A DNA stretch of 64,000 bases. Origin: Blasia pusilla. Taxonomy: Eukaryota. Position 1 is the first letter of the stretch, and the number at the start of each line of letters is the position of its first letter. The stretch lies in assembly GCA_050084515.1 (NCBI GenBank), contig CM114271.1:310001-374000 (forward strand). Reading direction: 5' to 3'. A model generated the notes under the pieces. That model worked only from the letters and a program-made list of their open reading frames with translations. It had not been told where the DNA came from and did not search any database. A program made the position numbers and the translations under genes. Of this stretch, positions 3,681 to 64,000 are shown piece after piece.

Positions 3681-6455
3681 AAATATATAAGTGTTTGAGG
3701 AGCTAATGTATAGCACGTGCAAGTAATAGATTAATGATACTACACATAAATTCAAATTTGTTTTTTTTGCCCGTAGCATGTGAAACCTTTTCTTGCCGCC
3801 CATTTGCCACATGTCAAGCATAGAGGTGTTTGCAAATCAAGAAGGAAATCTCCTATAATAATTTAGATTATTGGTGATGGGAATTTTAGCAACAAACATC
3901 TCTATGCTTCATACTTGTCCTTTTAGGTGGCCTGTGCTTTTGACACTTCTCCTCTCTAAATGTTTAGTTCCATCTAACTAAGATGGAAAACCGAGCAAGA
4001 TGAAGGTCAGAGATCTCCATATGGCTCTTCTTTCACATGTGTTAAGCATGTGAATATGGTATTATTAGATAACATTCTCTGGTTATTGGCCTAAAGTCAT
4101 CCCTAACACTTTTTAAATATCTCTCTTGTATACTTCCCTTCTTTGGCGTGCCTTATGCTATGTTCATAAGTTAACGTAAGTTCAAGACTAGCTTTCACTC
4201 TATTTCTTTTATTTCAATTGCAGATTTTTGTTTTTATTTTGCTTCATACTATTAAAATTAGGGAGCTTGGTTCAAGTAGCCTACCAAGAGGATAACATTG
4301 TATAAGCAAAGATACTTATGGAATGTCGATGAGACACAATGTTTAGTGCCTCGTATATTCCCCTCTCTTCGTGGTAAGTGATCTAGTAAGGGGATCCTAT
4401 CCTCTTATTGTCAACTTAGGTAAGACATAGTTCAATACATATCTAAGTTGAATAAAACATGAGCGGTTACATAAGATAATCATATGATTTTCTTCATTCT
4501 TCAAGGTCTTGAAAAAGGTTAAAAGTCTTTTAAGAACTATATTTATGTGAGAGAGAAATATTTAACTTTTTAAGAATTAGCCCAAGAATTAATTAGTTAG
4601 GAGATGCACCTAGTTGGCAACAATAACTCGCCAAATATGCAAAAGAGCATCCTATTTGTAAATGATAAATCAAATAGAGGTAGAGGTCCAAATAGAAGAT
4701 TTCATGGTCGTAACGGATATCCACAGATAGAGAAAGAGCCATCTGACATAATTTAACTTTGTCACATCTGAGTAGCCGATAGGCCGAGATCTATCGTGGA
4801 TAGGGCGTAGGAGCCAGCGGACTATCTTGAGTGTAACTTTGTCCCACGGTGTCGGATGAGGTTGAGGATAAGTCCATTGTGTCAGGAACGTCGTTTCTGA
4901 CAACTTTCATGTTGAGATCTTTTACAGCCGGATGATTTGTTGACCAGGTCACCCGCCCCTGGTAACTTGTGCGCGCAGGTTATCAAGGGAAGGGCTATTT
5001 TTAGGGAAAGAGCCTTTTGGCTCTTCCCAACCCTATATAAGAGAGGAAGATGGCTTTCCTAAGCCATCTTTCTCATGTTGGGCCGTTGGAGCACCTCCCT
5101 TGTATGTGTGTGAGCTAGGAATAGGGTGCTAGCGTCCGGATTCCTTTATAGCACAGGGTGGATGAAGCTCGATATGCCGATGTAGATTGAGGAGTGGAGT
5201 TTTAGGTCGGGTGTGCCGTTTTTACTACTCTTTATTTTTACATGAGAAAGATGTCAGGGGGCTGGTGGGAATTCGTTGTTTGCAGGTAGGCAAGCGAGTT
5301 GCCTTGGTCGGGAGCCCCTGGAGACGTGTGTGTGACGTTTTGTGTCATTTTTCTGTTCGGAAGGCCGTGGGCGGAAGCGCTGTCTGTTTTTCTCAGATTT
5401 TGCTGGTGCGGATTGATGGGGGACAACAGCCGAGTGTAGCGTGTGGTGGGGCGTCGGGTGTATGCAAGTGAGGGTGTCGAGAGAGAGAAGAAAGGAAGGT
5501 TTGGGCTTGCAGCCGCCGGGGGCTGTTAAGTAAAGACGGCTAGCTAGGTCGCGGCCGGGCTAGGGTTAGGTCGCGGGCGAGGGACGCGGACGGCAGACGG
5601 GCTGGCCAAGCCCTCCCCCGCATTTAGGGCCCAAGGGGCCCGCATAGGGCCGCCGACCCAAGTTCTCCCCAAGTTCTCCCCCCCTCTCCAACGTGGTAGC
5701 ACCGACCATAGTCGGTCGGACAGTTGTAGCGAACGTGGTTGGTAGCACGGACGAGGTCGGTCAGGCAAACGCGGTGACGCATGGGCAACGTGATGGCAGG
5801 GAGGACGTCGACGTGTTGAGTGAATGACAAGGTGAACAGCGGGCGTGACATGATGTTTTGGGGGCGCGATAGGGCGTTGCGAGAGTTTACGATGGAGGGG
5901 CAGTGTGCATGATGCCGACGGGTTGACCGCATCTGTTGACGGGAGGACCGACGTGTTGGTCGAGGGGAGTGTTATGTTGCGGAGATTGTCATATCATGTG
6001 GAGGAGTGCATATTGACGGTGCAGCAGGTTGGAGGGCGTGATCAGGTTACCCATTCGAGTCCCTTTTCCCGCACTTGTCGTGTGTGATTGAGAGTGCTGG
6101 GTATCGGGTAGTAGCTGGTGCTAGATGGGTGCATTGATGGTGACGAGTGTAGATTCTTTTCATGTGTAGCATGTTGGTGGATATACGGCGGTTGCCGAGT
6201 AGGGGTCGCGTGTATGACCCGAGAGAGTGTCGCTAGGTTAGGTGAGTTAGTTGGGAGGCTCATGGTGAGCCCGAGTGTTGAGCGTGCGTGAGGCCGGGTA
6301 TGTCATCACGGGATTGACGTTAGCATAGGTGAGCTAGTGAGGCGTGTGGGAGACTCTCGGTGAGTCTGAGTGCTTGAGCGGGTGAGACAGGGTTTGTCAT
6401 CACGGCGTTCTGCCAGGGTTCGGAAGAACGGGGTAGTGCGAGCAGTGGTAGTGGT

Positions 6456-8285
6456 GTGACACGCAGTGGAGTGAGATACCGAGGGGTTACCAGTGAGGAG
6501 CTCCCTCGACATCCATCCGTGACTGGATCGTCATCACTGGACACTGGTCTTGGTGACGAGATTACCGAGAGAGACAGTAGTACTTTGCAGGAGATGGACG
6601 ACATGGGCCATCGGGGCATGCGTTGTTTCTCAGGTGCAGTGGGCACCATCGACTTAGATGATTTCATCCAAGAGTTCGACACATGGTGCAACTTCTAGGA
6701 GATACGGACCCCGACACGGTTCAACCCTTTCATGGCATGGAAGGGGTTGTTCCAGCACTTGGAGGGTCCTCCGATGGATGACTACATGGAGTTTCGATCA
6801 CTATATTCAATAGAGATCGATGCCTGGAGGATATATTGGGCTCCAGGGTATGTGTCCACTAGTGGTCGCGAGGCATATGATGGGATTGTGAGAGGAGAGA
6901 GACCCACACCAGCAGCCCGGAGACTAGATGGAGAGGAGGGCAGTGAGACAGGTGATGTGGCAGAGACCTCTGGTGGTAGAGGGCCACCCAGCTTTAGCCC
7001 CACAGTGGAGTTCTTCCGACAGTTGGGGAAGAGCTACCAGGGCGTACGCACCGACAAGCTGAAGAGTCTACAGGATTTTCAACGACGATCGGGTGAGAGA
7101 CTGAGATAATCATTCACACGCATAAGGAGGCTGATCATTGCTACGTTTGGAGTGACTGAGGCGCAGTCAGTCAACATGAGTGAGGAGCAGGTAGTGACCG
7201 CTGGATTTTCTCGAGAGTCGACGGGTCCACGAGCGCCGGTGACCCCACAGGTGCAACAGCGAGCACCAGTACCACGGGAGCGGGCCAGTGTGCCTAGAGA
7301 GCAGGGCGGGTACCGTGAGCCTATGAGGCAACGACCCGCACCTACATATGTTGCCCAGTAGGGACCGATGTGGTCTTGTTGGACGTGTGGAGGGGCCCAT
7401 AGGCAGAGAGAGGCGCCTGGCCTAGAGAGGACCACGGCGCCTCCGATTGCTCAGGAGCCATAGAGGATGGCCCCACCACAGCACAAGTGTGACCATTGCC
7501 ACAGATATGGTCACACTAGGGATAGATGTTTTGACCTTCGACGAGGGGCACGTCCAGAGGTAGGCCGAGGGCCTCGGGGCGGTCGTCCTGGAGGAGGTCG
7601 GGGAGTTCTTCCTGGACGTGGTGGTAGAGGACCACCACCAGCTAGAGGAGATGGAGCACGAGCACTAGAGCCGGCGCTTCTCTCACGCATCGATCAGTTG
7701 GAGCAGAGGATTGCTACCATGACGATGATGCAGCTTAGGGAAGGCACAGAGCTGCGAGCAGCTAGTGTGACTCCAGTCTCTACCTCTTACCCTGAACCGG
7801 GTGAGGATCTCTCTAGTATGGGATTCATGTGTAGTGTAGCCTTGGTTGAGGCAGCTGCAGTGGTGACTCGGGGTGCTGCGAGAGGCACCGAGCCATCGAG
7901 AAGTGGAGTTGAGATTGACCCACCAGAGGGGAGCGATGGGCGGCAGGCCAGGGTTCCACAATCGTTCACATTGTCGGAGGCACTACACACACCATCGATG
8001 GTGCCTCGACGACCAGCGGTGCCTACAGTTCAGGCACCTACGTCGACGTCACGAGGAGTTGGAGTGAGAACTCCTATGCCGGCTCGAGTGGAGTCAGCGT
8101 CGACCATAGTGTTGGAGATGACCACTAGAGTGAGTCAGACTACGCTATTTTCCGCCATAGAGTTGGCGACGTTGGGAGTTGGACCAATTGAGGTGTTCCG
8201 GTTGGCCGCCACATTGTATGAGCGTGGAGAGATGACTGCTTCTTGTTCAGAGGTAGTTGAGGAGGTGGTGGACTTGCCCTCATAG
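6456..8285 (+). pseudogene. Gypsy Gag with two zinc knuckles, disrupted
   Basis: TRSGVRY start, DDFIQEFDTWC, a degenerate CWTCGGAH knuckle, CDHCHRYGHTRDRC (CCHC) and an RG-rich tail. Several in-frame TAG stops. Confidence 0.75.
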
Positions 8286-8379
8286 CCTGTGCTTGGGACG
8301 TTCCCCAAAGAGTCATGGCATGCGGCGGCGGCAAAGTTGGTAGATATGCCAGCTCTACCAGCCATACAGCGAGCAGTGG

Positions 8380-8830
8380 TGACACTGGAGTAGTGTTACT
8401 GGATAACCGAGCTCGAGTATTTCGCTTGGTTAGTCCGACGGGGACGGTATACCACCCGTTGCGCGTCCTACTTGATTTGGGAGCGCAACCCTTGATGTTA
8501 GGGAAGGCGGCGTGTTTAGCGTTGGGGTTACGGAAGGCCGACATTGAGCCTTGTCCCTTCCAGATCTGAGACCTCGATTGGGGCGTATCACCCACTCGAG
8601 ATATGACTCGACATGAGATTGTTGTCGAGTCCAAGAGAGCATGCGACGGATAGTGCTATGGTGCGCACGCGTGCGATTACGACACCACCGAGTAAATGCG
8701 ATGTGTTGGTGGGGAGTACAGTGTTATATCCCCTAGGATTCATCCTTGACTTCTGGGAGGAAACCGTTGCTTATCGGCCAGGATGGCGGTCAGGTGACGG
8801 CCGGATGAGTCAGTTACCCGTGCAGTTTGC
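8380..8830 (+). pseudogene. Retropepsin-like aspartic protease of the gypsy element
   Basis: RVLLDLGAQPLMLG (DSG motif with a probable TCG>TTG change), followed by DVLVGSTVLYPLGFILDF. Confidence 0.7.
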
Positions 8831-9183
8831 GGGACGAGGTGGTCGATCACGAGGCGAGTCTGTGACCACGTTGGCGGCTTTCACATGGAGTGTTAGATGG
8901 CTAGGAGAGTTGTTGGAGGGGAACGCACATGCGGAGGATGTCCCAGTAGCGGATAGTCCCACGGAGAGACAGGCCATGGCGGGTGTCTCTTCCCATGTTG
9001 GCGAGGCCTCTTCACCATTGTGGGGTACGACTCGAGAGCTACAGAGGAGTGCCGACGACCTCGTGAGGCAAGCGTGGAGTCATGTTTTTATCCTAGAGCA
9101 GCGAGAGTCACGTGGCGATCGGGCTCTTGGAGTGGAGACGATGACCCCACTAGATACCACACTTGTTGTGTGGCAGTGCCAAG

Positions 9184-10159
9184 AGGAGGGTGTTAGATCT
9201 CTTCGGAGGGATTAGCACCGGATTGGCTGCCATATTGCAGGCGGGCATACGGGTGCATCAGTACCTTTATGTGGAGAGAGATGACACCGCGCGGCGAGTA
9301 TCATTACGTCACTTGGCGAGATTGGTCCAGAGGTATGTTGAGTTGTTGTCGGTATCTGCAGTACGGGGATACCAGCATACGCTACCCGCCGATATCTCTT
9401 TGGTGGGGGTGCAGGATCTGGATAGAGTTGGCACCATTCATTTGGTGATTGCTGGATGGCCATGTCAGGGTCATTCATCAGCTGGCCGAGGATTTGGATT
9501 GCAGGATCCGAGGTCAGGGATGTTTTGGGAGATGCTGCGAGTATTACGACACTTGCAGGAGAGTCAAATATGTAATCCAGCGTACATTTTGAGTGTCGTT
9601 GTTGGGAGACACTCGTGCACGTGTGATGACGAGTGTACATCAGGTGAGGTCCTGGTTGGGACTTGCTGTGTTGTTAGATGTAGCGAGAGTTGGGTCACGT
9701 GCCCATCGTCCACGACTATGGTGGACGAACCTGATACCATCAAAGGTATTGAGTCAAGCCTACAGTGGAGTCCAGAGAGCACCACATCTCACAGTGGATG
9801 CTATTTTGGGCTCAGGGCGTCGATCTCAGGTGGTGACACGGGATGATAGACCACTGTTGGCCATGGCCAATAGGGTGGGGGAGTTGAGGGCAGCCTTACC
9901 TACGTTGGTGAGCTTCCCAGCATCCCATGCCTTTCGTCAGGGAGGGCCAGGCATGATTTGGGATGAGGTGACCGGAGCATTGGAGGAGCCTACAGCAAAT
10001 GAGCGCGAGCGCGCCATGGGGTTTACCACCGGTACTACGGCGGTGCCAGGGATGACTGAGGGATCACGGAGACAGGTGTTGGGGCAGGCGATGGACCTCA
10101 AGAGTCTCACATGGATAGTCAGCCTAGGTATGGCTGAGCACAGACGGATGCGAGTGTGA
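9184..10159 (+). pseudogene. DNMT3-like C5 cytosine DNA methyltransferase domain inside the gypsy polyprotein (frameshifted)
   Basis: Motif I RVLDLFGGI, motif II YVERD, catalytic motif IV AGWPCQ, motif VI (ENV) broken by a small frameshifting deletion at about 9590, motif VIII AHRPRLWWTNL, motif IX ERERAMGF, motif X RRQVLGQAM. Confidence 0.9.
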
Positions 10160-10429
10160 TCCATGCCGTCACATCCACGAGTTGGACCATTTCCTACAGG
10201 GTCTGTACAGGCATTGGCTGGGGGCGAGACGAGGAGAGATAGGCACCCATGGACTTCCTAGGACGTCGTTCGAGCAGAGAGTGCGAAGGCGGCTAGAGTA
10301 GCACATATTCATTTTTTGGATGAGGAGCATGGTGTAGGAGGTCAGAGTGGAGTGGCTCTTGTGGAGGTGTCTAGGATTGCTACATAGCAACCAAAGTCGG
10401 AGGTTTCATCCTCTCCGAGTGAGGTCACG

Positions 10430-12120
10430 ATGGAGACTTGGGAGCCTGTGATAGGTCTCAAGTTGATAGGAGGAGAGCGACGGCGAGTTCATAGGTTTCT
10501 GAGAGGGCATGTCAGTTGTTTTGCCTTCAGTATGAGAGACTTGGGTATGCTAAAGGGTCCCGGGATACGGATTGAGTTGGCTAGTGATACGCCAATCTTT
10601 CGTCAACCCTACAGGTATTCTGATATGGAGCGAGCCTTGATTCAGAGCAAGAGTCAAGACTTGTTGGAGGCAGGACTTGTGGAGTTATCACATGGGGAGT
10701 ATGCATCTGCCATAGTCATGCCGGCGAAGAAGGATATGTATGGCAATTGGACAGATAGGCGGATGTGTGGAGATTACCGTCCTATCAACCGACAGACGAG
10801 GTCAGATCGGTATGCCATGCCTACTCCTGAGGAGATCTTTGATGCGGTAGGGCATGCAAAGATCTTCAGTACTTTAGATCTCCGTGCTGGCTATCATCAA
10901 CTTCCTATATGGTTGGAGGACAAGGAGAAGACAACATTCTGGGGGATAGATCGGTTCGGGAGAGATTGCTTGTATCAGTGGTGGTTCTTACCATTTGGAT
11001 TGAAGAACGCGCCTGCGGAGTTTCAGAGAGTGATGGATAGGATTCTGGCTGGCTTGGATTTTGTACGATGTTACATAGATGATATTCTTATCTTCAGTTC
11101 CACGGTTGAGGAGCATGAGCGACACTTGAAGGAGGTATTTCGGAGATTGCAGTTACATGGACTGAAGTTACATCCAGGCAAGTGCAGATTCTTTCAGGAG
11201 CAGATTGAGTACTTGGGACACACCATATACCCGAGTGGGTTAGGCGTTCAGCAGACGAAGGTAGAGGCTATTGCGCACATTCCACGCCCTACAGATGTGA
11301 GTCGAGTCCGAGCATTTCTTGGACTGGCGAACTTCTATCGACGGTATGTCAAGGGTTTTAGTGCGATCACAAAGTCTTTGACCTTGTTGACGAGACTTGA
11401 TCAGGTGTGGTTGTGGGGAGATGATCAAGAGCGAGCATTTCAGAGCTCAGGACAAAGTTGACGTCCTCACCCATTTCTGAGAGACCGGTTAGGGGTCGCC
11501 CATTCCAGTTACATACGGATTGGAGCATGTTGGGTCTAGGAGCAGTGCTTACTCAGAGGGATGACGAGGAGAGGGAGTTCGTTGTGGCTTACGCGAGCCG
11601 ATCGAACAACATTGCAGAGGCGAAGTACATCTCCTACGAGGGAGAGTGCTTGGCTACAGTGTGGGCCGTGGCACATTTTAGGTGCTATTTATTCGGCAAC
11701 CCTTTCACACTTATCACTAATCATCAGCCGTTTAGGTGGTTGATGGAGTCCGACAAGCTTACGGGAAAGCTTGCCATGTGGGCTCTATTACTACACGAGT
11801 ATGAATTCGAGGTGGTTCATAGGCCAAGTCCGCTGAACCAGAATGCGGATGGGTTCAGTCGTAACCCATGTCCGAGTCAGAGAGATGTCACAGGAGCTCG
11901 ATGGCACGGAGAGAGTGATGAGGAGATGGTGCCCGGTTGGCATGCATCCGCCTATCTTTGTTGGTTGACTATGGCAGGTGAGCCACAGGTGATGACTCCA
12001 GTGGTGGGATTGGATGATGAGTCTTTGGATTCGGAGGTTAGTGAGGAGGCGACAGGTGGTCGTGATATCCATGACGACGTGGAGGTTGTGGAGTTCTTGC
12101 GACCTTTGGCGTCATTGTAG
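10430..12120 (+). pseudogene. Gypsy reverse transcriptase and RNase H
   Basis: RMCGDYRPIN, FSTLDLRAGYHQ, PFGLKNAPAEFQR and YIDD; RNase H LHTDWSMLGLGAVL...YEGECLA...NQNADGFSR. Frameshift at about 11455. Confidence 0.93.
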
Positions 12121-12199
12121 TACAATGAGTGCTAGGGAGCGGGATCGGATCCTACAGAGAGCCAAGAGGTTCAGGTGGGAGGGGACTCACATTTTAGGG

Positions 12200-13360
12200 G
12201 TATGGGGAGATGGTAGGATACGAGTGGTACCTCATCCTTCCCAGCGAGCACGTGTAGTGCGACATGCCCATGAGGAGTTGGGACATTTCGGAGTAAAGCG
12301 TACTTAGCGCTTACTCCTGGTTCAGTATTGGTGGCGCGGCATGCATACTAGGATACAGCAGTTTGTGTCAGATGTATGGTATGTGACAGAGTGGGAGCAT
12401 CCTTCAATGCTCCCACTCCGCAGTTATGGGTTTAGGTTATCGGTGGAGTTTAGACTTTGCGGGACCTTTGCCATTGACAGAGCGTCATCATAGGTACGTG
12501 TTGGTTATGGTGGAGCATTTCTCAAAGTGGATAGAGTTGGTGGCACTACCAGACAAGGCGAGCGAGGGAACAACTTTTGCGTTTCTAGATCGTGTGCTAG
12601 TCACTTTGGTGCACCGGCGGAGGTATTGACTGACCAGGGTACCGAGTTCAGGGGAGAGTTTTAGGCCTTGTGTGATTAGGCGCTGATAGATCACCGCACC
12701 ACGTCCAGGGATCATCCTGAGGCGGATGGGTTGGCGGAGAGAGAAGTACAAACGGTGAAGAGAGGATTGCGCAAGTATGGCTTGGAGCGGGGACAGTTGA
12801 GGGAGTGGGACCTACAGTTGCCATGGTTGGCTATGGGTTATCGCTTTAGTCGGTAGGCATCCTTGGCATCATTTTCACCGTACTTTTTTCTCTTTGGGAG
12901 AGAGCCAGATTTACCTGCAGCGATTCAACGTAACATGGCGGAGGTGTTAGATCTTGATGATCCAGATGTGTGGGTGCAAGCATGTTCTCAGAGGGCAGAA
13001 GTTTTTCATAGAGTTATGCCTATGGCCTTTGAGAACTTAGCTATTGCCCAGCATAGAGATACATTGAGGTACGTGATAATCCCTGGATGATAACCTCCAT
13101 TCGTGGAGGAGGTTATCGTCCAGGGATTAGGAGGTTTCATCCTGCAGATTACGTGTATTTACAGCAGGCGGCACCCATGACGCTAGATGTCACTACAGGG
13201 CGCACGATCCCACGTGTGCGCGAGGTATTACCGACCGGAGTCCTCATGTTGGAGGGACGGGATGGTATGGTTTGGAAGGATCATGTGCGCAATTGTGCGC
13301 CATGTCATCTTCCGAACGTAGATGGGATGGTGGATCTGAGCTTGGCAGTGGTACCTGCAG
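12200..13360 (+). pseudogene. Gypsy integrase
   Basis: HHCC zinc-binding part (HAHEELGHFG), then SLDFAGPLP, LTDQG and GLAER (the DDE triad), and FSPYFFLFGREP. Stops and frameshifts present. Confidence 0.88.
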
Positions 13361-13362
13361 GC

Positions 13363-13462
13363 GTGAGGTGTATGTTGTGCGGATCTACGAAGGGTGCAGC
13401 CACCATGTTTGGTATGTGATGGTTGTTCTCGAGGGTGGCATATGTCATGTCTGACCCCCCTC
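13363..13462 (+). pseudogene. PHD finger C-terminal to integrase (truncated)
   Basis: VRCMLCGSTKGAATM-(frameshift)-VCDGCSRGWHMSCLTPP gives C-x2-C...C-x2-C-x3-WH-x2-C; the final W-x-C-x2-C is lost at the truncation. Confidence 0.8.
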
Positions 13463-16400
13463 AAGAATCCTCATTCCCATATGATGTTCACTATGATCCT
13501 CCCCTTGCAAGAAAGTTGATCTCTGTATGGATAAATTGTAGAATAAGATTATCAAATGAAGTTTAACAAAGATGATTGCTTCATTAAATGAATAGATGAT
13601 AATACTATAATTGCAAAAGGAGTAAGATCTGGTAGAATGTTCAAATTAGATGTTTCTATGCGAGAATTTAAGATACAATGTATGATCAAACTGGCCAATA
13701 ACTCATAGATTACAAGATATCGCGTATGAGAATTAGACATACGAATCTTGAAAGACTATATGGTATTTTATGATCTAATTTAATAATAGGATTCCCTAAA
13801 TGATGGATTCCGAATGTATTACAGATTTTGCCCTGCTTGCCAATTTGGAAAATAAGATTTTTATTTCCATTTCTAAAGGATGGCAAGAGAGTATCCAAGA
13901 TATGGGAGTTGATTCACAATGATGTGTAGACAATATTACATCATTGTCTTTGTGGTTGCAATTATTTTGTTTCCATTCTTGATGATTTCTTTAGGTATAT
14001 ATGACTATATTTTCTGAAAGCCAAGTCAAAAGTATTCTTAATGTTCTAAACATCCAAAGTTTTGGCAGAGAAGTACACGTGGCAAAACATTATTAAATTG
14101 GGATGTGATGGAGAAATAAAGTTTCTCTCAACAAAATTTGATGACTAAATTTTTTTACATGGCTAAATATTCTAAATTTTAGTCATCAATTTTTGGTCAA
14201 AATAGCATCCAACAACAAGTCACTTGTCGCCACATCCGACATTAAAGTGGAATGGTTGAGCGTCAAAATTGACATATTGTTTAGGTAAGACATGTAATAT
14301 TGAATGATAAGAATATTTCTAAGGTGTATTGGATAGTGTCGCGGCCCTCATAACCAAACGAACACCGAACAGACGTTAAGCAAACATTGGAACTTTAGCG
14401 TGCTTACGAAACGATGATTGCTCTTTGGAGAGGTCTCTTGGAAAAGTCCAAAAGACGAAACATGCAACAAATTTTGTGTGTTTCATGTGTTTATGATCGT
14501 GAGTAGGAAACCTGCACCAAACCTGAACTAAGACTTGAGATGACTTGAGTCTAGGAAGGTTGGTTGCCAAAGAGATGAGAACTAGTTTTGCAACACGATT
14601 ACCGTTTGGGGATTTTGAGTGTGTTTCGAACTATAACATTTAGTCCTTTGAACAAGTAAGATGGCGTTAGAAAGCTTATGCCAAGACAATTATAACGCAC
14701 TAAAGATCTCAAAAAATGCTCATACAAATCTTGAGATACTTGCCGAAAACCACTATAGTTGGAGTTGGGTTGAGGGCCAAATCGAGGGGCCCGACTGTCT
14801 TTCCCTAAAGGTAGAGGGAGGGTAGGGATCCCCACAAATACTAGTAAGGGTGAGTGTCTCCAAGGATTCCTTGGAATTTGAATCCCATTTTGAGCATCAA
14901 TGGCGTTTCAAGGGCAGAGGATGAAATGAGAGTTTGACATTAGAACTCCAAATCCAAACCTGATCCAAGGGAGTGGATTTTGTAAGCCACACTTGGATTC
15001 GAACCCACGACAGATTTTGTGAATTGCAATTAGGAACTCATTGAATGTCCATTGGATAGTTGGAACTACGAGGCATGCAAACGCCGTTTGAGCTTCCTCA
15101 ACCGACCAAAAAGTCTATCAGATGTCTTGAAAGACTTGCCTATGTTGTAAATCGCGAAACTAGGAAGGTTGAGCTTGATGAGAGGCCGAGTCGATGAATT
15201 GGAAAGTTAGAACACTGATTGACCTAGACTTGACAAATGTGAGTACGTGTTTGGGTACAAATCAGGATTGGGAGCGTGTCTTAGTAAACGCACACTTCCA
15301 TAACATTAAAGATTTACGTTCAAGGAGAGTAGGCGTACGATAGATAGAGATTGCAATGCGTGCACACTCTTCTTAATTAGCCGAACTTCAACAACATGAG
15401 TTTATGATAAGACTCTATTCAAAGTCCTTATAGGAAGTAAACTTGATTTCTCATTCTTGAAAGTCTTTTGTTGTATCCGTTATGCTCATATTATTTTTTA
15501 AACACATCAAAAATTAGATTGGAATATTAGAGATGTGTCTTGATTGACTATGTCGATGAAATTAAAGGATATGAATGGTATATTCCATGTTAAATATATA
15601 TTTTCATAAGTGAGGATATTTTTTTATGATTTAAAATCATGGTATGCTGGATCTGAACCTATTCTACCTTTAAACATATTTGTTGAGGGGAAGAATATGT
15701 TTGTAAACCAAAACATGTTGCCTTTCAATTCCCCCAAGTATTACTCGAGGATTGAGAGAGATTATAGACTTTTTAGTTAAATCTCTTAATCCAAAGCTGT
15801 GTGGAGTACGTACTATTTAGACTATTGACATCAGTAGAGCTAAAGTTAGATGTTAGAGGTTTCCATCTTTGAACAATAATTTCATAGATCAACCGCATTC
15901 ATATTTTTTGGTCATATATTAATAAATGAAGGATTTTCTTGGAATACATTATGCATATATGATGACTCCCCTTTAAGAAAAAAATTATGTTGTTTTGAAG
16001 AAGCGCATGTAATGTCGAATGGATCAAAGCTACGGAGGAAGAAATTGTTATATTAAATTATCAATAAATTTGGGAGATGGTTGATATACTTATTGGTAAG
16101 AGAGCTATTGATTAGAAATGGGTTTACAAGATCAAACGCAATCAAGATGGTATAATGAAGGAAAACAAAGTTTAGTTAGTAGCCAAGTGCATGCCAAAAT
16201 AATATGGTATCCACTACAAGGAGATATTTGACCTTTTTATAAAATCAAAACTACGACAATTGTGGTTGTAGTTGTAGAGAATAAGAAGTAGAGACTACAT
16301 CATAATGACCTCAAGAATGTCATCTTGAATGGAGATTTGCATGAGGAAGTATATATGACTCAACCACATGGATATAAGCATCTCAAGTTTCCATTATATG

Positions 16401-17530
16401 TATGCAAAATAAAGAAAGCTATATATAGGCTTAATCAAGCTCCAAGAGTTTGGTATGGAAAAATTACATATGTTGTACAAAAACTTGACTTCAACGTTTG
16501 TGATTTTGATTCTTGGCCATGTGTCTTGTGAGGACAAAATAATATATTTATTATTATATTATATGTTGATGACCTCTTGGTTATTGGGAGTACTGAGGAT
16601 ATGATACTATTAGTCAAACTAAAGTTACACATAAAATTTGATATGAAGGAGTTAAGAGAACTCAAGTACTTTCTTAGTGTTAACTTTATCAAGGTTAGAG
16701 AGAGCATTTGGTTATTACAACGACAATGTGTTGTTCACATACTTTCAAAATAGAGTATATGGCTTGTAAGTCAATCTCAACATCATTAGACTACATTGTG
16801 AAGCTAATAGTGGATGAAAGAGATTTTCTTTTAGATTTTAATACGTACAAACGTATGATTGGAAGTTTGATATATTTGACTATAACTAGATCAGACTTGA
16901 GCTGCAAAGTTAGCTTAGTGAGCTAGTTCGTGCAAGCATCTCGAAAATCTCCCCTTGATGCTGTGAGGAGAATTATGTGGTATATGAAATTATTTATTCA
17001 ATTTGGGCTTCGATTTGAACCTTCTCAAAGCTGACAATTACTAGGATTTATAAATGTTGATTGGGTAAGAAGCATCTATGATAGAAAATGTATACTTGGT
17101 TAATTATTTCTTAATTTAGGAAATCATTATGATAAGTTGGGATTCAAAGAAGCAATCTACAATTGCTTTATCTTCAATAAAAATCGAGTATAAGGAAACA
17201 AACAATGCAACATGTGAGGCTGTATGGTTTCAATGATTACTACTTTAGATTGGTATTTGTAACTCATGATCTAGTGTAATATATGTAGATAATATTAGTA
17301 GCATGAAATTTCTTTGATAATCCTTTGTTTCATGGTCGAACAAAGTATGTGGGGGTGCACTATCACTTTATCAAAGAGAAAGTGCTTGCAAAGTTGATAT
17401 TATGTACATACGTACAAATCAACAAATTGTTGATATCTTTACAAAGGCATTGTCTAAAGATAAATCTGAGAAGTTTAGAAATGATTAAGGTGTTACAAAT
17501 ATCAGTACGCTTTTGAGGGGAATATTGAAC
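13463..17530 (+). mobile_element. Highly degraded Ty1/copia element
   Basis: Remnants NGDLHEEVYMTQP, KAIYRLNQAPRVWY, LYVDDL, MIGSLIYLTITRSDL and FHGRTKYVGVHYHFIKEKV. PPT-like TTGAGGGGAA at about 17514. Confidence 0.85.
14337..15342. mobile_element. About 1 kb solo-LTR-like insertion in the degraded copia integrase
   Basis: Begins TGTCGCG and ends CGTACGATA, flanked by the 5-bp TSD GATAG (14332-14336 and 15343-15347). Removing it rejoins the copia YW-x-E motif. Confidence 0.7.
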
Positions 17531-60134: not shown

Positions 60135-60800
60135 ACTCCCCAAGAAAGATAACTCCTATATGAGCACATAAAAGGATTGGATGAAAGTGGGTTCATTCAC
60201 TCAAGTAAGTTTCTTTTCATCTTGAAGAAGGATACATCTATGCGCTTTGAAGGCAGGTCCACCACCTACGAACGAGAGGCATTCACCTCTCTACGCTCAC
60301 ACAACATGGCGAATAGGTGCAATATGTCTGATGGTCCAACTCTAATGGAGATTGTACACATCATTAGGGTTGGCCTAATGGCAAATACCAATAATATCGT
60401 CGACACTAGCTACATCTGATTTGCGATAGGATTCGCCTCTCCAACTCTTGTGGAAACGGTTGGTGATTGAGGTACCATCGATGGTGTGTATAATGCCTCC
60501 GATAATGTGAATCACTGTTGATAAAGATGAATTTTCTTTCACGGAATTTGATTTAGAGACGTCCACCATCTCGACACTAGCTTATTGTTTTGCCGTGTCA
60601 AAATTGTGAGGGACGTCTTCGGTGTTGCACGCTTTCCTTCATCAGACCACTCAATCCGTAGGAGGAGGCATCCTCCATTTCAACACTGTAAGTCCATTGC
60701 ACATGAGTTCTTTCTTGGGCATCTTTGTCATGACCATACGGATTATGTCGTAGAGTATACTGTACTAGTAGAGGCCATATCTTATGTAGGGCCGTAGTAT
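60135..60800 (-). mobile_element. Minus-strand remnant of the gypsy Gag C-terminal/linker region; apparent PPT and LTR start at 60134
   Basis: The reverse complement contains TTCACATTATCGGAGGCATTATACACCATCGATGGT (compare 7965-8003) and GAGCGTAGAGAG...GGTGGTGGACCTGCC (compare 8220-8280). GGGGAGT is followed by TGTCACG at 60141-60128. Confidence 0.6.
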
Positions 60801-62329: not shown

Positions 62330-64000
62330 GTGGTGGTTTTACACGGAGTGGATTGAGGTATCGGCTATCTTTTCCACTTCCGACGGTTGATGAAGAGGAG
62401 GACGAGGGTGTTCCAAACATCGAGTTATCGAGTGTTGCAACTCCATTGATTTGGGATATGGACAGGATATATGGGGCCATGAAGGGCCCACGATGATACT
62501 CGGGTGCAATGGTTACCACTGAGTTGGAGGACTTCATTCAATAGTTTGATACGTGGTGTGATATGCAGATGTTGCGAAACGCCACGTTGTTTACATCCTT
62601 CTTGTTTACACCATGTTGCTGAGATTGAGACGTGGAGACAATATTGGTCTCTAGGCTATGTGTCTATCACCCATGGTGGTACAAGCCCGACGTTGAGTGG
62701 TACAAGTACGATCCGGAGTGGGGGTACAAGTGGAGGTACCAGTGGGGGTACTAGTGGAGGTACTAGTGCCCCACCATCGTTCAGCCCGGTTGAAGAGTTC
62801 CTCAAGAGATTGAAGAAGAACTATCAGGGAGTGAAGACAGAGAAGTTGAGGAGTCTTCAGGAATTTGAGCGAAAGACTGGTGAGAGTCGTCGTGAGGCAT
62901 ACACTCGTATGCGACGCTTGATTTGAGTTACCTAGGGTGTAACCGAGGCTTAGGAAGTCAAGTTTTGGTCATGGATCTTGGACAGAGAGTTGCGCCGCAG
63001 GGTATGTGATGCTACTCTTATGAGTGTTAATTCATCCACATTGACCCATGTGTTTGCTCTATCTGAGAAGATTGAGCTTAATATGGTGGAGGAGAGAGTG
63101 GTGACATCCGCATTCAGTAGAGATATAACTACTTCTTCTCGTGTTCAGCAGTCCACCTCACAGTCTCATAGTAGTGGTGGTGGTAGTAGTAGTGGGAGTC
63201 GGGGGGGTACACACGACCTCAATCAGATCCTAGAGGGACACTTGCGCAGAGACCATTGCCTTCATTTGCTGCCCCGCAGCAAGGACAATCATGTTGGACA
63301 TGTGGAGGTGATCATGTTAGGAGGTTTTGTCCCCAAGAGGATGGGAGACGGACTTTGGAGGATGGGCCTCAGTCGGCCCCAACTCATTGTAATCATTGCG
63401 GGAGACCAGGTCATCCTCGAGAGCGTTGCTTTGATCTTCATCTAGAGTTGAGATCAGGCCGCGGCCGTGGTGGAGTAGCTCCAAGAGGCCGAGGTGGTAG
63501 GGGTGGTAGAGGTGGACAGTGGTTGGAGAGCCTACGGTGGCTACCCTTACTACTACAACAGAGTCAGCTATGGCTGCCAGGATTGAGCAGTTGGAGCATA
63601 AGTTGGCTACTATGGCTGGTATCCATCATAGAGCAAGTTTGGGAGCATGTGCTTCCACCTCTTATGGAGAGGATAATCTCTCTTATATGGCAAGTGCAAC
63701 ACAGGTTGAGGCATCAGCTGTAGTTACGAGAGGAGCCACTTGAGCGTCAGAGCCACGTGGTGCTACCGTGGAGTTGGACCCACAGAGGGATGAGGTGGGA
63801 GGCATACTTGGCTTCCCCAGTCATTCTTGTTGTCTGAGGTGCTTAGGACTCCATCCATGGTTCCTACGCAACCTATTGAGCCTACAGTGGGGACTCAAGC
63901 ATCTTCATCACGTGTAGTAGACACGGATGCAACATCCAGTGCAGTATTGCGGATGGAAACTTCAGTGTTGGGATCCCCATTGTTTTCAGCCACAGAGCTG
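62330..64000 (+). mobile_element. Second gypsy element, with Gag related to the DNMT-bearing element; runs off the right edge
   Basis: TRSGLRYR, FDTWC, SFSPVEEFLKRLKKNYQGVKTEKLRSLQEF, CWTCGGDHVRRFC, CNHCGRPGHPRERC, ARIEQLE, SAVVTRGA and LSEVLRTPSMVP are collinear with 6456-8200. Confidence 0.85.

Follow-up and report, generated by a model that had tools for sequence, protein, structure and literature searches.

A decayed gypsy-type retrotransposon copy in Blasia pusilla and the bryophyte family with a DNMT3-like methyltransferase to which it probably belongs

Features of the element copy

The analyzed window, a stretch of 64,000 nucleotides from Blasia pusilla, contains on its + strand a retrotransposon copy of Ty3/gypsy type (approximately 5040-13456) in which a cytosine-5 DNA methyltransferase (DNMT) domain lies between the protease and the reverse transcriptase (RT). 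All features described below are on the same strand. The GC content climbs from 0.375 to 0.565 near position 5000, and the first repeat of related copies (A1) begins about 4.56 kb upstream of the C-terminal half of the DNMT, which would place the start of the element at about 5040; the border of the 5' repeat and leader (5040-6593), based on this GC rise and on the spacing in relatives, is approximate. Alignment of the 5' region with the repeat of the related locus L039 was not significant (score of 35, shuffled maximum of 44). At the other end, RNA reads of relatives diverge from the window after position 13455 and the GC content drops to 0.40, marking the end of the element at about 13456. 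No direct or inverted repeats surrounding the copy were detected in the 64-kb window, and neither two long terminal repeats (LTRs) nor a target-site duplication was found; beyond about 13456 the copy lacks its 3' end.

The coding parts appear in the order typical of Ty3/gypsy elements (gag with a CCHC knuckle, protease, RT, RNase H and integrase), based on motifs, Pfam matches and comparison with proteins from a related metagenome locus (L034) and from Marchantia. The gag (6594-8372) aligns from residue 1 of the Marchantia ORF1 protein P0003 in ungapped pieces sharing 39-88% identity, carries the CCHC zinc knuckle CDHCHRYGHTRDRC at 7488-7529, and is interrupted by in-frame stops at 6696 and 7107. 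The aspartic protease region (8387-9194) passes from frame 3 to frame 2 and back to frame 3, with the motif LLDLGAQ at 8468-8488. Its ORF at 8607-9215 had no Pfam match, and in relatives the scores for PF13650 (Asp_protease_2) were under the cut-off of 24.3 (22 bits in P0083, 22.4 bits in L034 ORF1). Downstream of the DNMT, sequences were assigned to RT (10388-11461; PF00078, E = 1.1e-30; YIDD at 11072-11089) and RNase H (11443-12102; PF17917, E = 6.8e-31, and PF17919, E = 3.7e-25). The integrase (12122-13407) aligns to residues 577-1002 of L034 ORF2; six frame changes fall within or border it, four stops interrupt it (12305, 12662, 12677 and 12854), and its core domain reached 27.6 bits for PF00665 on 12387-12629, under the cut-off of 32.6. 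The copy closes with the remnant of a C-terminal PHD finger (13369-13459), frameshifted and cut at about 13456, with 76-88% identity to the corresponding PHD segments of L034 ORF2 and Marchantia P0052; PF00628 (PHD) was assigned to these two proteins with E-values of 2.6e-10 and 4.4e-9, respectively. A PHD finger thus forms the C-terminus of the integrase in the relatives, and chromodomains were absent from the Pfam matches of both the window ORFs and the relatives.

A preliminary description of this DNA, made from the letters alone, had placed five C5-MTase motifs between protease and RT on the strand of the polyprotein, and all of them were recovered there by motif search: LDLFGG at 9193-9210 (motif I), GWPCQ at 9454-9468 (motif IV, with the catalytic Cys), AHRPRLWWTNL at 9701-9733 (motif VIII), ERERAMGF at 10001-10024 (motif IX) and RQVLGQAM at 10070-10093 (motif X). 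The N-terminal half of the domain (9190-9600), with motifs I and IV, shares 73% identity with residues 883-1019 of P0003, and the PF00145 search proposed at that time was positive for this half (ORF 9154-9846; E = 1.1e-7, 32.1 bits, curated cut-off of 22). The C-terminal half (9602-10156), with motifs VIII, IX and X, lies in the frame of the RT; its ORF by itself had no Pfam match. A chance origin of the motif and domain matches is excluded by their E-values. In the protein atlas, the domain matched only generic 'C-5 methylase' clusters.

The two frameshifts reported earlier for this domain are real. The one upstream of motif I lies at 9190-9194, the protease frame (3) extending to 9194 and the DNMT N-terminal half (frame 1) starting at 9190. 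The other, a shift from frame 1 to frame 2 at 9593-9601, removes motif VI, the window reading AYIL without ENV where relatives read YILENV, and the copy is therefore unable to make the enzyme. The extent of the damage had nevertheless been understated, since frame-by-frame alignment to relatives revealed a dead copy with 11 frame changes and at least 8 premature stops, in addition to the absent 3' end. Of the catalytic motifs I (FxGxG), IV (PC), VI (ENV), VIII (RxR), IX and X, motif VI is lost here and the whole set is kept in the family; judged by its sequence, the window copy is a pseudogene whose family retains the C5-MTase motif set.

A second member of the same family, frameshifted and represented by gag only, is cut by the end of the window (62458-64000); its five frame pieces share 59-77% identity with residues 1-535 of P0003. 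The ORF at positions 1-369 had no usable match in the protein atlas.

Affinities of the domain, ORF layout and distribution of the family

The resemblance to DNMT3 suggested by the preliminary description was supported by both sequence and fold comparisons, in which DNMT3 proteins were the nearest among characterized methyltransferases. When Marchantia P0003 was compared with solved chains, 25 of the 27 matches were DNMT3A, DNMT3B or DNMT3C (best E = 1.7e-8), the others being M.HaeIII (1e-3) and chain 4onj (2.6e-3). The window C-terminal half alone had DNMT3B as its best solved chain (E = 0.014). A predicted model of P0001 (pLDDT 88.2) retrieved with Foldseek exclusively DNMT3A, DNMT3B and DNMT3C among the matches listed, down to rank 48 (best E = 7.7e-20; target-normalized TM of 0.83). 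PF00145 was likewise assigned to P0003 (35.6 bits) and L034 ORF1 (51.1 bits). The motif order (I, IV, VI, VIII, IX, X) is not permuted, unlike that of plant DRM and as in the catalytic domains of animal DNMT3A/3B/3C. Identity to the animal proteins is, however, just 20-24%, and Pfam searches of P0003, L034 ORF1 and the window ORFs detected no PWWP or ADD reader N-terminal to the DNMT, a position occupied here by gag and protease. Motifs VIII and IX are separated by about 90 residues in the window domain, a gap that is shorter in DNMT3A. That a methyltransferase occurs together with a histone reader of PHD type is reminiscent of the ADD domain of DNMT3, yet in this family the PHD finger belongs to ORF2, where it follows the integrase.

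In relatives, the DNMT closes ORF1 (gag-protease-DNMT), and RT, RNase H and integrase follow a conserved in-frame UAG-CAA-CCN stop. The single Gag-PR-DNMT-RT-RH-INT frame envisaged in the preliminary description did not hold, as this stop splits the coding region in two. In the window, the ORF1 tail (10157-10384), which aligns to the C-terminal tail of P0003 up to residue 1245, contains two premature stops (TGA at 10157 and TAG at 10259), and comparison of the junction across loci assigned 10385-10393 (TAG CAA CCA, in the RT frame) to the conserved stop that ends ORF1 and the codons next to it. Among the 45 metagenome loci with a locatable DNMT/RT junction, the stop was present in 40, and in 37 it was TAG or TAA with CAA and then a codon beginning with C behind it. 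The nearly intact locus L034 illustrates this layout, with an ORF1 of 1369 aa, one stop, and an ORF2 of 1047 aa in the same frame that includes RT, RNase H, integrase and PHD according to Pfam. Leaky stops between gag and pol are known from gammaretroviruses, and UAG-CAR-YYA is the known read-through context of tobamovirus type. The window (UAG CAA CCA) and L034 (UAG CAG UUA) conform to the latter, although most related loci have CAA CCC. As in gammaretroviruses, a single in-frame stop separates the upstream ORF from the polymerase ORF; here, however, the upstream ORF additionally holds the protease and the DNMT. From the conserved context alone, we infer that the stop may be read through.

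At least 57 proteins homologous to the N-terminal half of the DNMT were found (best identity of 74%). Among the matches listed, the names given by the sources were Marchantia polymorpha (18), Calypogeia fissa (4), Sphagnum (3) and a bacterium (1), the other 31 being without name. The protease-DNMT-RT layout recurred in proteins source-named Marchantia, Calypogeia and Sphagnum, as well as in 57 metagenome loci, and intact ORF1 genes are annotated in Marchantia polymorpha. The C-terminal half retrieved 834 representative clusters with E-values up to 1e-3 (452 up to 1e-10 and 36 up to 1e-30; best 7.4e-68). Further relatives of the DNMT domain among the matches listed came from Marchantia paleacea, Riccia sorocarpa, Sphagnum tenellum and Mesostigma, and from the algae Monoraphidium, Haematococcus, Chromochloris and Cymbomonas, with Scenedesmus added by a separate search; no Klebsormidium-named protein was present among the matches listed. 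Polyproteins of green-algal gypsy elements matched, with E-values from 1e-110 to 1e-160, the same profile as the canonical DNMT3-like protein P0335 (E = 4.6e-12), and DNMT and PHD finger co-occurred in most proteins long enough to reach the integrase. In the FastTree phylogeny of the DNMT, the window C-terminal half grouped in a clade (99) with rows from Marchantia, Calypogeia and Sphagnum; this tree has only two outgroups (P0335 and the bacterial enzyme P0057) on branches longer than 2.5, and placement among DNMT classes is beyond it. As far as protein sequences can tell, the family is of the jumping-gene kind known from Klebsormidium and is common in liverworts and peat mosses.

Conservation, transcription and nearest known systems

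Conservation was counted over 104 proteins covering the domain. The catalytic Cys was present in 98 of them, the remaining six having gaps; in motif VI the E was found in 103 and the N in 102, the two motif VIII arginines were retained in 101 and 103, and the motif I glycines were near-invariant. The residue preceding the catalytic Cys was Pro in 47 proteins and Glu in 45, while the bryophyte clade retains the canonical PCQ. The dN/dS comparison proposed earlier yielded DNMT values resembling those of the RT, with pairwise medians among loci of 0.47 and 0.62 for the C-terminal and N-terminal halves of the DNMT, and of 0.45 and 0.30 for RT and RNase H, respectively. These copies are mostly decayed (stop-free in 3 of 30 for the C-terminal half and in 10 of 35 for the N-terminal half), and the values of 0.47-0.62 are just moderately under 1. 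Between the window and the loci, dN/dS was 0.11-0.13 with saturated dS.

Three RNA-seq runs labeled as the same species contributed 721-832 reads each to the element, including the DNMT bins. Most reads were 90-95% alike to the window, which indicates that they come from related copies. The first mate mapped mostly to the - strand, corresponding to sense RNA if a stranded library of the common kind was used. The observed/expected CpG ratio was 0.78 in the window copy, 0.44-0.55 in the flanks and 0.49-0.55 in other copies; a value of 0.78 is not the signature of long-methylated sequence.

Related copies have A1...B1-A2-B2 repeats 8.75 kb apart instead of two plain LTRs, an A-coding-B-A-B layout observed in all four related loci with complete 3' ends (L039, L035, L050 and L041). 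The nearest described system, KnitGypsy-Dnmt3, comes from the charophyte Klebsormidium nitens and is an LTR gypsy element whose polyprotein includes an intron-free DNMT3-type domain; key catalytic residues are conserved, the DNMT is under purifying selection and the repeats are arranged 'A-coding-B-A-B' (de Mendoza et al. 2018, PMC5890265). The present family has in common with it the DNMT3-type domain in frame, without introns and inside the gypsy coding region in many copies, as well as the conserved catalytic residues and the split repeats, but its hosts are land plants (liverworts and Sphagnum). The same paper describes the C5-MTase-carrying retrotransposons SymbioDIRS-Dnmt3 and SymbioLINE-Dnmt of Symbiodinium, in agreement with the known cases named in the preliminary description (dinoflagellates and Klebsormidium). 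SymbioDIRS-Dnmt3, also DNMT3-related and with A-coding-B-A-B repeats, carried out de novo CG methylation in yeast (PMC5890265), yet these dinoflagellate elements belong to other classes, with tyrosine recombinase or endonuclease rather than protease and DDE integrase. The EpiLTRs of Cymbomonas and Euglena also combine several epigenetic modules in one LTR-element polyprotein, namely an adenine methyltransferase, a DNMT sister to DNMT4 and a chromodomain (bioRxiv 10.64898/2026.05.21.726589), whereas the family described here combines a DNMT3-like domain with a PHD finger, without DAM or chromodomain matches. Chromoviruses (Neumann et al. 2019, PMC6317226) similarly fuse a chromatin-reader module to the integrase C-terminus; as a PHD finger (PF00628) takes the place of the chromodomain in the present elements, the family falls outside that group.

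In the article texts covered by the literature search, gypsy elements with a DNMT were not described from bryophytes or any other land plants. The available text of PMC5890265 does not mention Marchantia, liverworts, Sphagnum or Physcomitrella, and the main text of PMC6317226, in its available portions, contains no methyltransferase, PHD, Marchantia or Sphagnum. Nothing on such land-plant elements was present in the available portions of PMC6453930, PMC5784723, PMC11982613, PMC9033089 and PMC6317226, while PMC12344493 and bioRxiv 10.64898/2026.05.21.726589, in the portions available, merely refer to 'streptophytes', citing the 2018 paper.

Interpretation and alternative readings

Taken together, these results very probably identify the locus as a dead, 3'-truncated Ty3/gypsy-type copy whose intact relatives would have two in-frame ORFs, the first comprising gag with CCHC, protease and a DNMT3-type C5 methyltransferase and the second RT, RNase H, integrase and PHD finger, split by a UAG/UAA-CAA-CCN stop. 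The same judgement covers the DNMT as a stable, selected component of a family occurring in liverworts and Sphagnum, within a much larger green-lineage gypsy group that pairs DNMT with an integrase PHD finger. According to the mechanism proposed here, ORF1 would be made in excess and ORF2 would be obtained only when the leaky stop is occasionally read through, in the manner of retroviral gag-pol, so that the methyltransferase would be produced in step with Gag. The protease of the element may free the methyltransferase, which may be packaged in particles, although both steps are guesses. The DNMT would then methylate the new cDNA or the fresh insertion de novo, and the PHD finger would direct integration via histone H3 tails. 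As a whole, identity plus mechanism, this is the explanation that we consider likely. Self-methylation as the actual role of the DNMT is a possibility that falls somewhat short of probable.

One rival reading is a one-off event, in which a fragment of host DNMT3/DRM or another mobile element was nested in this particular gypsy copy, or in which the assembly is chimeric. It is favored by the lack of detectable LTRs and target-site duplication in the window copy, whose borders are for that reason not directly checkable. Yet the protease-DNMT and DNMT-stop-RT junctions were found again in several bryophyte genomes identified by name, as well as in the 57 metagenome loci, and the nested insertion was rejected on account of this recurrence. 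All 57 confirmed loci carry the DNMT at the same position, although they were retrieved with the DNMT itself as query; the domain had no termini of its own, protease and DNMT being contiguous in single ORFs (Marchantia P0003 and P0018, and L034 ORF1). The shared frame of the DNMT C-terminal half and the RT, and the coverage of the region by RNA reads of relatives from the same species, argue in the same direction. A recent capture of a host gene, a doubt raised in the preliminary description, is contradicted by the distance to the nearest canonical DNMT3-like protein (P0335; 27% identity, E = 4.6e-12), the sole one among the matches listed and the bearer of PWWP and ADD-type Pfam families, and by the far stronger matches of the green-algal gypsy polyproteins. 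A one-off origin is thus extremely improbable.

Two further alternatives accept the family and question what its DNMT does. The domain could be a pseudo-enzyme, or a structural or DNA-binding module with a non-catalytic role such as CpG DNA binding or recruitment of host factors, as might be suggested by the Glu that replaces Pro before the catalytic Cys in about half of the wider family and by the absence of methylation by KnitGypsy-Dnmt3 in yeast (PMC5890265). That result was called inconclusive by its authors, and it is weak evidence because human DNMT3B was likewise inactive in the same assay (PMC5890265); moreover, the near-invariance of the catalytic Cys, ENV, motif VIII arginines and motif I glycines, together with the PCQ of the bryophyte clade, argues for catalysis, which makes a pseudo-enzyme improbable. 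Alternatively, an active DNMT may have other targets, either host or competitor DNA, or may lay down gene-body-like CG methylation that shields new insertions from host silencing instead of damping the element. The location of the enzyme in the abundant ORF1 product and not in the integrase-bearing ORF2 is consistent with this, as are the sense transcripts of related copies, which imply that the family is not fully silenced; in its available text, the discussion of PMC5890265 does not settle on a role and brings up accidental action of the enzyme on host DNA. We regard this use of the enzyme as rather unlikely, though clearly less so than a pseudo-enzyme.

More speculatively, and returning to an enzyme acting on the DNA of its own element, the window copy might be the first recognized land-plant member of a large, undescribed green-lineage gypsy superfamily whose elements are equipped with two epigenetic modules, a methyltransferase of DNMT3 type and an integrase with a PHD finger. 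Among the bryophyte members, the DNMT would have been relocated to the gag-protease ORF, which is abundantly expressed and precedes a leaky stop, and intact members in Marchantia polymorpha would methylate their own new DNA or landing sites, adding to bryophyte methylomes. This combined reading is tentative.

Retrotransposons bearing an enzyme that hosts use for silencing constitute a paradox, previously encountered in dinoflagellates and one charophyte alga, where the function was left open. The persistence of the gypsy-DNMT3 kind in land plants, with annotated intact ORF1 genes in Marchantia polymorpha and probable sense transcripts in Blasia pusilla, offers a route to experiments and, if the combined reading is true, the purpose of transposon-encoded DNMTs becomes testable in a tractable model plant. 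If confirmed, an integrase PHD finger, a leaky stop grouping DNMT with Gag, and DIRS-like split repeats alongside a DDE integrase would be new for plant transposons, and these companion features would matter for the annotation of the family ORFs. At present, these ORFs are annotated as 'hypothetical protein' or 'DNA (cytosine-5)-methyltransferase'.

The methyltransferase domain and its carrier element

The five C5-methyltransferase motifs that a preliminary description had placed at 9184-10159, on the strand of the polyprotein, were all located there; they lie on the + strand and run I (LDLFGG, 9193-9210), IV (GWPCQ, 9454-9468), VIII (AHRPRLWWTNL, 9701-9733), IX (ERERAMGF, 10001-10024) and X (RQVLGQAM, 10070-10093). 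The ORF with motifs I and IV (N-half, 9154-9846) matched PF00145 above the 22-bit cut-off (E 1.1e-7, 32.1 bits), and the ORF with motifs VIII-X (C-half) had no match by itself in the Pfam scan. Searched on its own, this C-half ORF hit 834 representative protein clusters at E<=1e-3, the best at 7.4e-68; 452 of them reached <=1e-10, and 36 reached <=1e-30. As had also been proposed, the domain sits between protease and RT on the same strand. Its 5' neighbours are gag, with a CCHC knuckle at 7488-7529, and protease, whose motif lies at 8468-8488; its 3' neighbours are RT (PF00078, 1.1e-30), RNase H (PF17917, 6.8e-31) and an integrase that scores 27.6 bits to PF00665, under the cut-off of 32.6.

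The frame path of the window copy was traced by aligning natural relatives to the window. On the + strand, ORF1 (gag-protease-DNMT) runs through frames 3 (6612-8372), 2 (8387-8566), 3 (8640-9194), 1 (9190-9600) and 2 (9593-10384) up to a junction stop at 10385, and ORF2 (RT to PHD finger) through frames 2 (10433-11455), 1 (11446-11958), 2 (12125-12370), 1 (12370-12426), 3 (12423-12599), 2 (12599-13081), 1 (13099-13407) and 2 (13409-13459). The copy is a pseudogene, with 11 frame changes in total and eight stops within aligned pieces (6696, 7107, 10157, 10259, 12305, 12662, 12677 and 12854). Both frameshifts described earlier, before motif I and in motif VI, are real according to this alignment; the second deletes motif VI, where the relatives read YILENV and the window reads AYIL before switching frame.

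The element ends at ~13456, in the middle of the PHD finger, since GC content falls there from 0.52 to 0.40, homology to ORF2 of the nearly intact metagenome locus L034 and to the PHD-bearing Marchantia protein P0052 runs out at 13459, and RNA reads of related copies continue past 13455 with sequence unlike the window. A GC step and the spacing in relatives place the 5' border at about 5040; the alignment of the 5' region with a relative's repeat was not significant, and no direct repeats flanking the main copy were found within the window. The observed/expected CpG ratio of the dead copy (5040-13456) was 0.78, the values being lower in the flanks (0.44-0.55) and in other family copies (0.49-0.55).

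The resemblance to DNMT3 noted at the outset was borne out by comparisons of sequence and fold. At E<=0.01, the sequence of P0003, an intact protein from Marchantia, had matches to 27 different solved chains, 25 of them DNMT3A, 3B or 3C (best 1.7e-8) and the remaining two M.HaeIII (1e-3) and 4onj (2.6e-3), which we take to be a plant DRM. The AlphaFold model of the natural protein P0001 (mean pLDDT 88.2, pTM 0.87) retrieved from the PDB with Foldseek only DNMT3A/B/C among the rows listed from the best 48 ranks (best E 7.7e-20, target-normalised TM 0.83; identity 20-24%). The motif order is not permuted, and the enzyme is therefore not DRM-like. A FastTree phylogeny of 164 rows, built after setting aside 62 near-duplicates and those 200 of the 422 stored proteins in which the domain is not covered, grouped the window C-half with Marchantia, Calypogeia and Sphagnum rows (support 99, starred), and with only two long-branched outgroups this tree cannot position the family among DNMT classes.

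Relatives of the element and their architecture

The methyltransferase is a regular feature of the family, as opposed to a one-off, recurring in Marchantia, Calypogeia and Sphagnum proteins and in 57 metagenome loci gathered through the domain itself (C-half identity 33-66%). At least 57 proteins were found with the N-half (best identity 74% among the matches listed), the listed matches being named as Marchantia polymorpha (18), Calypogeia fissa (4), Sphagnum (3) and a bacterium (1), with 31 unnamed. Protease, DNMT and the following tail share a single ORF in the Marchantia proteins P0003 (1278 aa) and P0018 (1248 aa), and gene models such as P0023 extend into RT and RNase H. A profile built from 20 sequences of the domain added Marchantia paleacea, Riccia sorocarpa, Sphagnum tenellum, Mesostigma, Monoraphidium, Haematococcus, Chromochloris, Cymbomonas and Scenedesmus among the matches listed, none of which bore a vascular-plant or Klebsormidium name; the only canonical match listed was P0335, with PWWP and ADD-type Pfam families (4.6e-12, 27% identity).

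Only four of the 57 metagenome loci retained a + strand ORF of at least 400 aa. In L034, ORF1 (1369 aa; PF00145 at 51.1 bits, Asp_protease_2 slightly under cut-off) is followed in the same frame, after one stop, by ORF2 (1047 aa), which encodes RT and RNase H, the zinc and core domains of integrase, and a PHD finger; a stop divides what had been sought as a single Gag-PR-DNMT-RT-RH-INT frame. DNMT is part of ORF1, and the in-frame stop at the junction with RT is conserved, being present in 40 of the 45 loci with a locatable junction and missing from five. In 37/45, the stop (TAG or TAA) precedes CAA and a codon starting with C, typically TAG/TAA CAA CC(C/A); the window reads TAG CAA CCA (10385-10393, + strand) and L034 TAG CAG TTA. 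Annotated Marchantia ORF1 proteins terminate at the same place, 61-63 residues past the domain. CAR-YYA is a read-through context described in plant-virus work. The conserved stop suggests, at the sequence level, that the polymerase ORF may be expressed through a leaky stop.

The integrase C-terminus carries a PHD finger (PF00628; P0052 4.4e-9, L034 ORF2 2.6e-10, also P0082 and P0108), of which a remnant lies at 13369-13459 (+) in the window, whereas chromoviruses have a chromodomain at that spot. The finger accompanies DNMT in most polyproteins extending to integrase. The layouts met most often in the 222 proteins covering the domain were RT-DNMT-INT-PHD (83), DNMT alone (70) and DNMT-INT-PHD (21); DNMT preceded RT in 10, and ~19 more long "DNMT alone" proteins were of ORF1 type. 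Two architectures were distinguished. DNMT precedes RT in the bryophyte-type clades; in chlorophyte-type polyproteins it sits after RNase H and before integrase, and the 110 polyproteins of this second type kept in the tree all fell within a single cluster of 127 rows (support 83-86, unstarred).

Four related loci with complete 3' ends (L039, 5439-14642; L035; L050; L041) showed repeats arranged as A1...B1-A2-B2 (A ~340 nt, B ~115 nt, A copies 8.75 kb apart), matching the "A-coding-B-A-B" layout given for the Klebsormidium nitens element KnitGypsy-Dnmt3 (de Mendoza et al. 2018, PMC5890265). These loci lack two plain LTRs, yet encode a DDE integrase.

Conservation, transcription and possible role of the domain

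Residue conservation was counted over 104 stored proteins covering the domain. The catalytic Cys was present in 98 (the other six being gaps), E and N of the ENV motif in 103 and 102, the motif VIII arginines in 101 and 103, and the second Gly of motif I in 103. The residue preceding the catalytic Cys was Pro, the canonical one, in 47/104 (including the bryophyte clade) and Glu in 45/104. Pairwise Nei-Gojobori dN/dS was calculated among the metagenome copies aligning without gaps, others being dropped (C-half 30/56, N-half 35/45, RT 21/37, RNase H 28/33); medians were 0.47 for the DNMT C-half, 0.62 for the N-half, 0.45 for RT and 0.30 for RNase H, pushed towards 1 because the compared copies are mostly decayed, and DNMT therefore behaves like RT. 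Window versus loci, the ratio was 0.11-0.13 with dS saturated (~2-3). The DNMT domain is conserved at the family level and, judging from these comparisons, appears to be kept by selection.

Three RNA-seq runs bearing the species label of the DNA runs that best match the window gave 772, 721 and 832 reads aligned to 4800-13700 (depth 0.4-10 in the DNMT bins). Only 9-24 reads per run had >=99% identity to the window and 561-636 had 90-95%, so the RNA derives mainly from related copies and not from the window copy; the family therefore has other copies in the same species, some of them transcribed. Almost every read in the coding part had its first mate on the - strand, which for usual stranded libraries indicates sense RNA.

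The anatomy of the element, its likeness to DNMT3 and the transcription of its relatives are established. Upon these, a course can be proposed in which ribosomes would read through the ORF1 stop, the element's protease would free the DNMT, and the enzyme would methylate de novo the cDNA or a new insertion of the element itself; the integrase PHD finger may read histones. Such self-directed methylation is put forward tentatively, at somewhat less than an even chance. An enzyme active on other targets is conceivable, if rather unlikely, and a non-catalytic domain appears improbable. Capture of the DNMT as a one-off event is scarcely credible, given that the arrangement recurs in Marchantia, Calypogeia and Sphagnum proteins and in the 57 metagenome loci.

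Precedents and other features of the window

Gypsy-DNMT3 elements are already known as a kind. For KnitGypsy-Dnmt3, a Ka/Ks <0.2 was reported in Klebsormidium nitens, and activity in yeast was undetectable, a result its authors call inconclusive; Marchantia, liverwort, Sphagnum and Physcomitrella have no mention in the main text of that paper (PMC5890265). Two later papers from related groups (PMC12344493; bioRxiv 10.64898/2026.05.21.726589) cite, in their accessible text, only "streptophytes (Gypsy-DNMT3)", and the main text of the REXdb plant LTR survey (PMC6317226) does not mention methyltransferase, PHD, Marchantia or Sphagnum. Searches of freely accessible articles, in their main text, found no report of DNMT-bearing gypsy elements in land plants; likewise, land-plant hosts, DNMT in ORF1, the putative leaky stop and the PHD finger did not turn up as features of such elements in the literature searched.

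Elsewhere in the window, an ORF open at the window start (1-369, -), in a GC-rich stretch (0.51), had no usable match in the protein atlas; it contains YTFLEFNTQGDDFDYPEF, which may resemble the N-terminus of UPF1 helicases. Short ORFs at 16292-17500 (+) are putative fragments of a copia-type reverse transcriptase. A gag-like fragment at 60248-60517 lies on the opposite (-) strand, with 43% identity to the gag of the main element. A second family member, also frameshifted, occupies 62458-64000 (+) and is cut by the window end before protease and DNMT; its gag is closer to residues 1-535 of Marchantia P0003 (59-77% identity) than that of the main copy (40%).
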